In this document: positions 33,001 through 36,000 of the stretch, one piece after another
How the letters are laid out: every line of letters starts with the position of its first letter
Position numbering within the stretch: the stretch's first letter is position 1
Assembly: GCA_046541415.1 (NCBI GenBank)
Contig: JBKHDI010000007.1
Span: 1,713 to 65,712 of the forward strand
Direction: 5' to 3'
DNA length: 64,000 nucleotides
DNA from: Phycisphaerae bacterium
Lineage (GTDB): Bacteria; Planctomycetota; Phycisphaerae; SM23-33
Program-made: the position numbers

Positions 33001-36000
33001 AGCAACGTCGTCGCAACAATGTTCCCGGTGGATGCGAACCTGTCGGCTGATCCACCACGTCGCCGGGTGAAAGAAACCTACCGTCTCGGCCAGCGCCTGG
33101 CCGATCGCCACCAGCCCGTCCAGCCGCCGGATGTGGGCCAACTCGTGGGCCAGCAGGGCCCGCACCTGCTCCGACGGAAGCCCCGTGGCCAGGCTGGCAG
33201 GCCAGAGCACCACCGGCCGCAGCCATCCGATGACCGCCGGGACACTCTCCATCGCCGCGACCGCCAGCCGGACAGGCCGCGTCACGCCGAGCCGCACGCA
33301 AAGATCGTCTAGCAGCTGCTGCAAATCGCCACTGGGTCGCCCGCCGGCCAAGCGCCCGAGCCGAAAGGCAGCGACCCAGCCCCCAGCCTGCCAGATCGCC
33401 ATCCCCGCCGCACCGAGACACCAGGCCACCGCGGCCCAGCCGGCAAGGACATCCGCCGCCGAGACCCGCCGTCCCGCATTGCTCTTGACGATCACCTTGT
33501 CGCCTGCTGCCTTACCACGTTCGCCCGGACCCGACGCCACGGGCTTCGAACCAACCGTGTACCCGTTCGAACCCGCCCCCGCGTCGGTCATTGGCGATTC
33601 CGTCTGTCCACTGCGCGGGCGGTATTCCTTCTGGAAGGGCAGGGCTCGACCGGGATCGACCAGCCAGAACGTTACGAACATCGCCAGCACCCCGCCGGTC
33701 AGGGTCAGGCAGCTCATGGCGTACTGCCATTGGGGCCTGCGACGCCGCAGGGCCAGCAGTCCCATCATCATCAGTACCATCGCGGCCGTAAGCTGCCACA
33801 TCGCATGGAAAACCGTCCAGCCAAGCCGCCGGGCGATGTCCGACTGGATAAAGTCATGCAGATTCATCGTCGCTGCCTCCCTTGTCCGCCCGATCGATCA
33901 GTTCCTGGATCTCGCCCAATTCTTCCGGCGTGATCCGCTCGGCCGCTGCGGCCCGAAGGATCATCTTCCGGGCCGAACCGCCGAAGGCACGCTGCAACAG
34001 GTCATCCAGCAGGCCGATCTGCGTCTGCTCCTGCTGCTGGGCGGGCCTGTAAAGCTGCGGACGGACCGACGCGTCTTTGAGCAGCAGGCCCTTGTCGGTC
34101 ATCACCTGCATCATCTTCAGCGTCGTCGAATAGCCCGTCCGACGGCTGGCTCCCAGCACGTCATGAACCTGCCGGACGGTCGCCGGCCCTGTGTCCCAGA
34201 GCACCTGGAGGATCTCCAGTTCCACATCCGTCGGTTGACTGGCCGGCTGTCGTGGCACGTCAGGCTCCTGCCGAAGAAAGAAACCGTCCCACCCGGCCAC
34301 GGTCATCCGCGGCACGAGCGGTACAGAACAGTCTGACGAAAGTATTCGTCATCCAGGCCGTGCATGTCAAGCAGATTCACGAAGGAATTCGTCAGAAGCC
34401 ATCTCTCTGCGGGAATTGCGCGATCGGCGGGGTGTTGCAGGCGGGGCCCTACAGCGGTCAACTTTATCCGGTTTAGTAAAATCGGAAAAAGTTTATCAAT
34501 TCCAAGGATTTCAATAATGAAAAAGACGGGCAGTTTCCGATAGGATACATGAAAGCTTAGCGTAGTACGCCGCAGAAGAAACCGCGCAGGTCTCCCTCCT
34601 CCTGACCCGGTAACTGCGGCTGGAGCTTTAAGGCGACTTTCAGGTCTCCCTCCGCCTGGAAGTCGCCTGGCTTTTTTATCTGGAGATCCGCCATCGGATT
34701 GCGGGACGGCGTCCTGGCGGAACAGATATATAAAACCGGCCGGGCCTCCGGGGGAGGCTCGGCCGGTGACAGAGTCCGGGATCAAACGGAATCCATCAAA
34801 TCCTTTCGCCGCAGGCGGTTCTATTTGATGGCCTTGAGCTTGGCGGCCTTGTCTTCGGCGGAGAGTTTATCCCACGCGGCAGGGCAGCCTCCGCAACAGA
34901 AGGCCACGGTCTGGCCCTTGAACTGGCGGGTCAGCGAATCCTTGACGTTTTTGGCATGGATCGGCGAACCCATGGTCGGGCACTTGGCATTGGCGTAGAG
35001 GCCTTCCTTTCCCTTGGCGTCATGGTTTTTATCTGCGTGGTGTTTGTGGCCCTTGTGGGCATCGGCAGTTGCTACAGCCTTTGCAGCCATTTTCTGGACT
35101 GGCTGAAGAGCTTCGCGGGCGGTGGCCAGGGCTGCCAGGGCCTCTTTCTCGTTGCCGGCCTTGATGGCGGCCTCGACGGCGTCGAGCTTCTCTATCGCGG
35201 CCTCGGTCTTGTGATGGGCGCACTTGCCGCACATGGCGCCTTGGGCCATGGCCTCCTTGCATCCGGTGCATTTTTTGACCTTGGCCTGCTTCTGGTCGTC
35301 ATCGACGCTGGCCAATACGTCAGCAGCCTGCTTGGCGGCACAGGACTTGGATGCGACGGCCTTGTCAGACCCGCAGGCCTTCTTGCCATCGACGCTGGCT
35401 ACGACATCGGCAGCCTGCTTGGGGGCGCAGGACTTGGATGCAACGGCCTTGTCAGTCCCGCAGGCCTTCTGTCCGTCCGCGCTGGCCACTACGTCTGCCG
35501 CTTTGGTGGCAGGGCAGGATTCGGACGCCACAGCCGCTGATCCGCAGGATTTGCCCCCGCTGCCTGCCAGGGCCGGCAGGGCGATTACGGCAACCAGAAC
35601 GGTACAGATGACCGAGGCGGCGATGATTGTCTTGCTGCGTTTCATGTTGACTCCTTTGATGTGTTTCTCACTTGCCGGATCGGGTGGAACTACGACCTCT
35701 TCATGTTGATTACGAGACAGGGCATGGATACGTTCCGCAAAAAGCATTATAAAGCGATCGGACTAGTAGGAATTATACGGGCTAAGCGACCCTGAGATAG
35801 AAGAACAGGGATCGTTCACTCGGCAGCGGCCTGGCGGATGGCCGTGAGCACGTCGAGCAGTTCCATCTCTGTAAACTCTTTTCCGATAGCTACGTAGGTG
35901 TCGCCCTGGATTGAGGTTGCTGCCATCCTGCAGCCGTTCTGGCTGCACCACGCGAATTCCTTGCCATCCCGGGTGAACGGATGGGTGAACCCCAGTTGGG

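Follow-up and report, generated by a model that had tools for sequence, protein, structure and literature searches.

A predicted small RNA family with twin anti-Shine-Dalgarno-like loops in an uncultured order of Phycisphaerae

Small RNAs (sRNAs) that present the same anti-Shine-Dalgarno loop on sibling hairpins have been described in Alphaproteobacteria and Actinobacteria. The alphaproteobacterial cuckoo RNAs (alpha-r14, CcsR1-4, NfeR1; RF02344) consist of two to four adjacent hairpins with variable stems and one common C/U-rich loop, occur as paralogous copies within a genome, some of them in a preserved context, and can end in a hairpin that serves as terminator (PMC4615179). The actinobacterial 6C sRNA (B11) is ~100 nucleotides (nt) long, has two hairpins with C-rich loops, binds several mRNAs through these loops without an RNA chaperone, and is conserved across a large high-GC lineage (PMC6486639). 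C-rich loops of sX13 in Xanthomonas and of the UCCC-loop sRNAs of Staphylococcus and Bacillus (RNAIII hairpins, RsaE/RoxS) likewise pair with G-rich ribosome-binding regions of many mRNAs (PMC3771888; PMC4615179). For Planctomycetes, Verrucomicrobia, and Chlamydiae together, a 2022 survey lists 8 annotated sRNAs versus 345 in Proteobacteria (PMC9029176). Here we analyze a 64,000-nt stretch of DNA from a Phycisphaerae bacterium (hereafter the window; source genome G000, 4.07 Mb, 64.5% GC), in which an element at 34553–34677 on the + strand folds into two hairpins with near-identical loops, UCUCCCUCC(U/G). This element is very probably a real, conserved, and structured sRNA gene. Judged from sequence searches, it belongs to an uncatalogued family that is confined to one uncultured order of Phycisphaerae.

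Structure and distribution of the family

RNAfold places the + strand of 34569–34678 at −54.5 kcal/mol (z = −5.6), a value equaled by none of 200 shuffled sequences, and returns the structure drawn in the initial annotation of this DNA. The 5′ arm (34569–34620) is built from helix P1 (7 base pairs (bp); GCCGCAG at 34569–75 with CUGCGGC at 34614–20), helix P1b (4 bp; ACCG at 34581–84 with CGGU at 34608–11), and hairpin 1, whose CAGG/CCUG stem (34587–90 and 34601–04) carries the loop UCUCCCUCCU at 34591–34600. It is preceded by GUAGUAC (34562–34568), which is single-stranded in the fold, and followed by a single-stranded linker (34621–34630) that joins the two domains both in RNAfold and in the alignment of relatives. 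Hairpin 2 (34631–34668; arms 34631–44 and 34655–68, 14–15 pairs) carries the loop UCUCCCUCCG at 34645–54 and forms the stem of an intrinsic terminator with a U6 tract at 34672–34677; a terminator scan picks up this hairpin together with its T-run. Each loop amounts to a tandem CUCC-CUCC, so that two anti-Shine-Dalgarno units overlap within it, and two invariant G-C pairs together with a U·R pair keep it open. The two near-identical loops had been noticed from the sequence at the outset, and folding and terminator prediction now bear them out.

Searches of relatives with blastn returned matches of 70–82% identity spanning both hairpins in many genera. An alignment of 30 homologs (A1) has a consensus that runs from GUUGUCCGCUGCACCC through N8 to a first hairpin of the form stem-GGU-CUCCCUCC-RCC-stem, then through GGGUUGCGGCUA and N4 to a second, GGGCGAY...AGGU-CUCCCUCC-RCCU...GUCGCCC, followed by UUUUUU. 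GUAGUAC in the window is the counterpart of a GUUGUCC conserved in this alignment. RNAalifold recovers the same three helices from A1, with compensatory changes in 14 of 26 pairs. In a larger set of 94 distinct sequences (A2), 97.4% of the cells at paired positions are paired and double-sided changes occur in 24 of 29 pairs; none of 500 shuffles reaches any of these measures, and control registers slid along the alignment leave only 34–50% of cells paired. P1 and hairpin 1 covary across the family, and the stem of hairpin 2 shows changes on both sides in 12 of its 13 pairs (helices 4 and 5 of A2). The loops behave differently: their core, GGUCUCCCUCCRCC, is near-invariant across the 94 sequences, and GGUCUCCCUCC-CC is unchanged in both hairpins of all 30 homologs in A1. 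The structural conservation that the initial annotation proposed to look for is therefore present across some one hundred genomes and exceeds chance.

A covariance model built from relatives (R1) matches 96 of 99 genomes of the same uncultured order, including 57 of the 58 of high quality, with 1–7 copies in each. Outside the order, the model gave three marginal matches only (24–28 bits) in a sample of the class. The exact two-loop pattern, sought in 185,579 species with one genome each, occurs only in metagenome-assembled genomes of Planctomycetota/Phycisphaerae, including SM23_33 and fen_1343/1344, in agreement with the planctomycete lineage first suggested for it; the pattern is also found in at least 120 metagenome contigs, all DNA contigs of at least 1 kb, among which none showed ends like those of a transcript. 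Rfam 15 holds no family that the window copy matches at threshold, and five further copies from relatives and from the source genome likewise lack a match at the gathering threshold, which upholds the novelty claimed for the element.

Four copies were found in the source genome: the canonical, main copy (C26:17749-17861, 110 bits), the window copy (C7:36270-36387, equivalent to window positions 34558–34675, 86.5 bits), and two others (C4:50295-50414, 80 bits; C46:2462-2574, 66 bits). Their stems and 5′ parts differ, and GGUCUCCCUCC is present in 7 of their 8 loops, with GGCCUCCCUCC in the eighth. All eight occurrences of the 11-mer GGTCTCCCTCC in the genome lie within such hairpin loops. We regard the window copy as a diverged paralog of this order-wide, multi-copy family. 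It is kept beside the same downstream genes in a genome of the same genus (G001), where the changes in its helices are compensatory (GCCACAG/CUGUGGC; CGGG/CCCG). Genomes of genus g25 contain weak extra matches to R1 (~42 bits), each at a distance of ~1.1 kb from a full copy (L017 2664-2765 (−), L092 5118-5219 (−), and L124 2601-2699 (+)), and these are probably further diverged paralogs.

Set against the described systems, the planctomycete family has the cuckoo design, with two identical loops, covarying stems, and several copies per genome, and the resemblance to cuckoo and 6C RNAs pointed out in the initial annotation holds. However, every cuckoo loop reads CCUCCUCCC (PMC4615179), whereas both hairpins of the planctomycete homologs carry (U)CUCCCUCC(R). 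The planctomycete RNA also has an additional conserved helix, P1/P1b, under hairpin 1 and a conserved 5′ tail, and it belongs to another phylum. The planctomycete family has no DUF1127 gene upstream, and its conserved neighbor is nrdJ (class II ribonucleotide reductase). The cuckoo family member RSs0680a is bound by Hfq (PMC4615179), whereas Hfq is absent here. The cuckoo model ar14 (RF02344) is the second-best sub-threshold Rfam match at 18.3 bits (E = 1; gathering score 58.8). The common architecture indicates that the planctomycete RNA would operate in the manner of the cuckoo RNAs, but is no evidence of common descent. With 6C it shares the length of ~100 nt, the two hairpins, and the C-rich loops, with six C per loop here too, but its loops are U-interrupted (CUCC)2, that is, anti-Shine-Dalgarno units rather than a C-run, it is multi-copy, and it comes from a different phylum. 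The 6C model (RF01066) is absent from the Rfam matches at E ≤ 10, and all members of the present family are Planctomycetota/Phycisphaerae metagenome-assembled genomes. The sX13, RNAIII, and RsaE loops have 4C or UCCC motifs rather than a fixed 8-nt CUCCCUCC in both loops, and these RNAs are unrelated in sequence, structure, and lineage. The best sub-threshold Rfam match, ncS035 of Burkholderia (RF02870; 23.5 bits, E 0.0074), covers mostly the terminator hairpin and U-tail; it lies far under the gathering score of 79 and leaves the internal helices unaligned, so that the element is not a member. By model score, loop motif, and taxon, the element falls outside both the cuckoo and 6C families, and it represents a new family of a kind already known.

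Mode of action and candidate targets

We consider chaperone-independent anti-Shine-Dalgarno pairing of the loops with ribosome-binding sites the most likely mechanism, and one that is probably, if not securely, correct. The gene at 34553–34677 (+) would produce a stand-alone, trans-acting sRNA of ~125 nt. Its 5′ tail is short and unpaired; the long, irregular hairpin after it bears the loop (U)CUCCCUCC(R) at its tip, and a second hairpin, in which this loop recurs, also serves as Rho-independent terminator. The loops would pair, without Hfq, to purine-rich GGGAG(A)/GGAGGGAGA-type ribosome-binding sites, which would block 30S binding and reduce translation, as do the cuckoo/CcsR, 6C, sX13, and RsaE-type sRNAs. 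Flagellin mRNAs and nrdJ are candidate targets. Like the initial annotation, we infer a role as multi-target translational repressor.

The genomic background is compatible with such pairing. The source genome uses Shine-Dalgarno sites, with a GGAG peak at −9 to −14 and a general consensus of AGGAG(A). The 16S rRNA 3′ tail of the order is canonical, CACCUCCUUUCU / GGAUCACCUCCUUUCU, as taken from 12 relatives, the 16S rRNA gene being unassembled in the source genome itself. The check for RNA chaperones suggested at the outset found csrA and no hfq in the source genome. In 26 genomes searched no Hfq was found, and a dependence of the RNA on Hfq is rejected on that ground. CsrA was found in 22 of the 26, and also in out-group families that do not have the RNA. 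The Xanthomonas sRNA sX13 also acts without Hfq.

Among individual genes, a flagellin paralog at C105:2458 has UGGAGGGAGA at its ribosome-binding site (context ucucUGGAGGGAGAaccaucAUG) and could form a perfect 10-bp duplex with the loop at −19 kcal/mol, a result matched by none of 300 shuffles. The form (A/G)GGGAGA(A) is seen in further flagellin paralogs and in flagellins from throughout the order, and the nrdJ ribosome-binding site in the source genome is AGGGAGA. In the fetched loci of the order, GGGAG stands at the ribosome-binding site of 21/37 nrdJ and 12/26 flagellin genes, compared with 18/370 other open reading frames (ORFs); all other ORFs in the same loci served as the control for Shine-Dalgarno type, replacing an aconitase control that gave one start only. 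The baseline for GGGAG in the source genome is at most 6.6%, and canonical GGAGG sites predominate at flagellin and nrdJ in those out-group lineages that lack the RNA. These patterns make flagellin and nrdJ tentative targets.

Several observations weigh against this interpretation. The 8-mer complementary to the loop, GGAGGGAG, is not enriched at ribosome-binding sites of the source genome, where 7 of its 68 occurrences fall, mid-range among its 27 permutations. Outside predicted coding sequence lie 25 of the 68, of which 8 correspond to the loops of the RNA itself, read from the other strand, 2 are in the sRNA-like units on contig C9 described below, and only a handful are at ribosome-binding sites, one of them that of the flagellin gene at C105:2458. 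Flagellin was detected in 67 of the 99 genomes of the order and the RNA in 96, so that about a third of the genomes with the RNA lack flagellin, which cannot then be its sole or principal target. For nrdJ, the complementary stretch is short (5–7 nt), and in a second in-group sample of nrdJ only 5 of 15 genes had GGGAG. The target analysis was post hoc and its ORF calling crude. Finally, invariance extends over a single 14-nt block made up of the loop and its two closing G-C pairs, which would also suit recognition by a protein.

That last point leads to the rival we take most seriously, although we think it unlikely, namely that the twin hairpins GGU-CUCCCUCC-RCC serve as a decoy that titrates an RNA-binding protein rather than pairing with mRNAs. 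The protein might be a factor whose normal contact is with the CCUCC 3′ tail of 16S rRNA, or else one of KH or cold-shock type with affinity for C/U-rich RNA. Invariance of the loop and its two closing G-C pairs in 30 homologs, and near-invariance in 94, beside outer stem pairs that covary freely, would fit such a decoy, as would the housekeeping role suggested by 1–7 copies in 96 of 99 genomes and the lack of clear enrichment of perfect targets at ribosome-binding sites. However, no candidate protein is linked to the locus, where conservation of neighboring genes extends only to nrdJ and to a LeuD-like gene present at 29 of 96 loci. Invariant closing pairs are equally expected if the loop just needs stable presentation, and every characterized RNA of such architecture works by base pairing (PMC4615179, PMC6486639).

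A bolder version of the pairing mechanism is speculative, and we would give it little more credence than the decoy. In this version the family, rather than being an ordinary stress sRNA, would act as a near-universal, multi-copy anti-Shine-Dalgarno in trans, selectively capturing GGGAGA/GGAGGGAGA sites, a sub-class for which pairing with its (CUCC)2 loops would be stronger than pairing with the canonical tail of 16S rRNA. It would thereby couple the supply of deoxynucleoside triphosphates, through its fixed neighbor nrdJ, to flagellin synthesis, and would compete with CsrA for these same GGA-containing sites, all without Hfq.

Further observations were made on the candidate target genes. The source genome has about ten flagellin paralogs (C105:2458-9900, with four in tandem on this contig; C27:30780-34337; C43:21698; C18:39126), and their ribosome-binding sites vary among GGAGGGAGA, AGGGAGAGA, GGGGAGA, and GGAGGAAGA. 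About 250 nt upstream of the nrdJ start on C26, the leader contains AAAACACAACATATAGGGCC, which may be an NrdR box, and a TTGAAA-N17-TATAAT promoter lies further upstream. A genome-wide ranking by duplex energy with a loop-plus-stem probe was discarded because, at a GC content of 64.5%, it retrieved GC-rich artefacts at false starts.

Elsewhere in the source genome, beyond the window, C9:75560-75880 (+) holds two units in tandem, each running from promoter to terminator, of a different sRNA-like type. Each unit has one hairpin with the loop CUCCUCCUU or CUCCCACUU and one with the loop CUCCCUCC (stem CCAGAGG/CCUCUGG), followed by a long terminator. The two units look like members of another family of RNAs with anti-Shine-Dalgarno loops alongside the present one.

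Promoter, strand, and genomic setting

Comparison with the upstream regions of relatives points to a promoter of the form ATGAAA (34517–34522) - N18 - TAGGAT (34541–34546) on the + strand, with TCCGA (34536–34540) directly abutting the −10 box. The −35-like hexamer ATGAAA, which was not detected by a sigma-70 scan, comes from this alignment, in which the family consensus is TTGAAA, often with TAAAGA before it. Of 95 regions upstream of homologs, 37 have CCGA 0–3 nt ahead of a TAnAAT-like box, usually 5–17 nt before GUUGUCC, and about a quarter to a third of homologs have the fuller arrangement TAAAGATTGAAA - N10-12 - TCCGAA - N1-2 - TATAAT, again ending 5–17 nt before GUUGUCC. Well-conserved examples of this architecture are seen at loci L028, L029, L031, L036, L037, L041, and L071. 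In the same-genus genome G001 the region corresponding to 34509–34560 is 75% identical, and the promoter element of that copy reads TTCCGATAGACT. The TAAAGA and TCCGA elements could be a regulator binding site or lineage-specific promoter elements. A search of the whole source genome for AAAGnTT...CCGA...TAnAAT gave one unrelated match, and the arrangement is neither a general promoter type nor the mark of a visible regulon.

The initial annotation had read the promoter as TTCCGA-N17-TAGCGT, with a start at about 34570. Because TCCGA directly precedes the TAGGAT −10 box, TTCCGA is not a −35 box, and transcription would start near 34553 instead. With that start (~34553 ± 3, from the position of the −10 box) and an end in the U-tract given by the terminator, the predicted transcript is ~125 nt (34553–34677). 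The locus has its own Rho-independent terminator, is unattached to a coding gene, and has its own promoter as far as can be read from sequence, the features looked for in a generic trans-acting sRNA.

In the window, the RNA is flanked by a BlaI/Penicillinase_R repressor gene (33854–34315, −), which lies upstream and divergent, and by a gene for a Cys-rich protein with no Pfam match (34821–35747, −), which lies downstream and convergent. A perfect GC-rich hairpin, ACCGGCCGGGCCUCC...GGAGGCUCGGCCGGU, occupies 34733–34769 and is followed on the minus strand by UUUUAUAUAU; it is most likely the terminator of the convergent gene, and its Rfam matches (Scr3920, mir-3158) are at chance level only. The sole promoter-like site that the scan gave in the gap is a sigma-70-like TTGACA-N18-AATACT at 34341–34370 (−), upstream of the BlaI/Penicillinase_R gene. 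Two minus-strand ORFs that overlap the element (45 and 160 amino acids) were rejected as genes because the 45-amino-acid product has no Pfam match and conservation is RNA-like, with spacers that differ by 1–2 nt between homologs in A1.

This setting bears on whether the element might instead act in cis, as a 3′-untranslated-region (3′-UTR) or readthrough element of nrdJ or as a terminator-type leader (attenuator) of the LeuD-like gene. At 68 of 96 loci the main copy shares the strand of nrdJ and lies 123–500 nt downstream of it, and at 29 of 96 the LeuD-like gene follows, co-oriented, within ~100–150 nt. However, nrdJ in the source genome is closed by a hairpin and U-tract of its own before the promoter of the RNA begins, promoter boxes stand directly upstream of the RNA, and paralogs including the window copy have unrelated surroundings in which they face convergent genes. 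Just 43 of 85 loci have a co-oriented ORF as nearest downstream neighbor, and no conserved alternative antiterminator pairing is present. A role as 3′-UTR or leader is disfavored because nrdJ has its own terminator and the window copy faces a convergent gene with the terminator at 34733–34769, and we hold it to be very improbable.

The strand of the RNA was likewise considered. A minus-strand transcript would display loops GGAGGGAGA, each with two GGA motifs, and the initial annotation had raised the alternative that it acts as a sponge for CsrA in the manner of CsrB, RsmY, or RsmZ. CsrA is encoded in the source genome and in the 22 of 26 relatives noted above, and the minus-strand loops resemble the flagellin ribosome-binding site UGGAGGGAGA. 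Flagellin leaders are a classic CsrA target. Against a sponge, ~12% of the paired cells in the 94 sequences are G·U on the + strand and would become A·C mismatches on the minus strand, and the minus strand of the element folds more weakly (z = −3.1 vs −5.6). All 30 aligned homologs have a T-run after hairpin 2, and this conserved U-tract and the promoter boxes suit the + strand only, the minus strand being without a terminator. The out-group families that lack the RNA also have CsrA, and the + strand, whose loops are CUCCCUCC, has no conserved GGA. G·U pairs, U-tract, and upstream promoter boxes all point to the + strand as the functional one, which supports a non-coding RNA gene on this strand with its own terminator, as the initial annotation had it, and leaves the sponge with next to no credibility. 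We give equally little weight to a dispersed repeat resembling repetitive extragenic palindromes or miniature inverted-repeat transposable elements (REP/MITE), or to two adjacent terminators with no RNA function, since the several copies per genome with two hairpins each are few (1–7) and show neither target-site duplications nor terminal inverted repeats, synteny of the main copy holds throughout the order, covarying stems with fixed loops are the mark of selection on RNA rather than of a mobile DNA repeat, and no U-tract follows hairpin 1.

Significance for Phycisphaerae

The kind of regulator represented here is known, and the gain is incremental rather than conceptual. It consists of an sRNA family defined in ~97% of the genomes of an uncultured order, in a phylum with few known regulatory RNAs, for which flagellin and nrdJ are candidate targets. 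After the cuckoo/CcsR RNAs of Alphaproteobacteria and the 6C RNA of Actinobacteria, the family provides a further independent case of identical anti-Shine-Dalgarno loops on sibling hairpins. Its occurrence in a lineage without Hfq supports this design as a recurrent, chaperone-independent solution.

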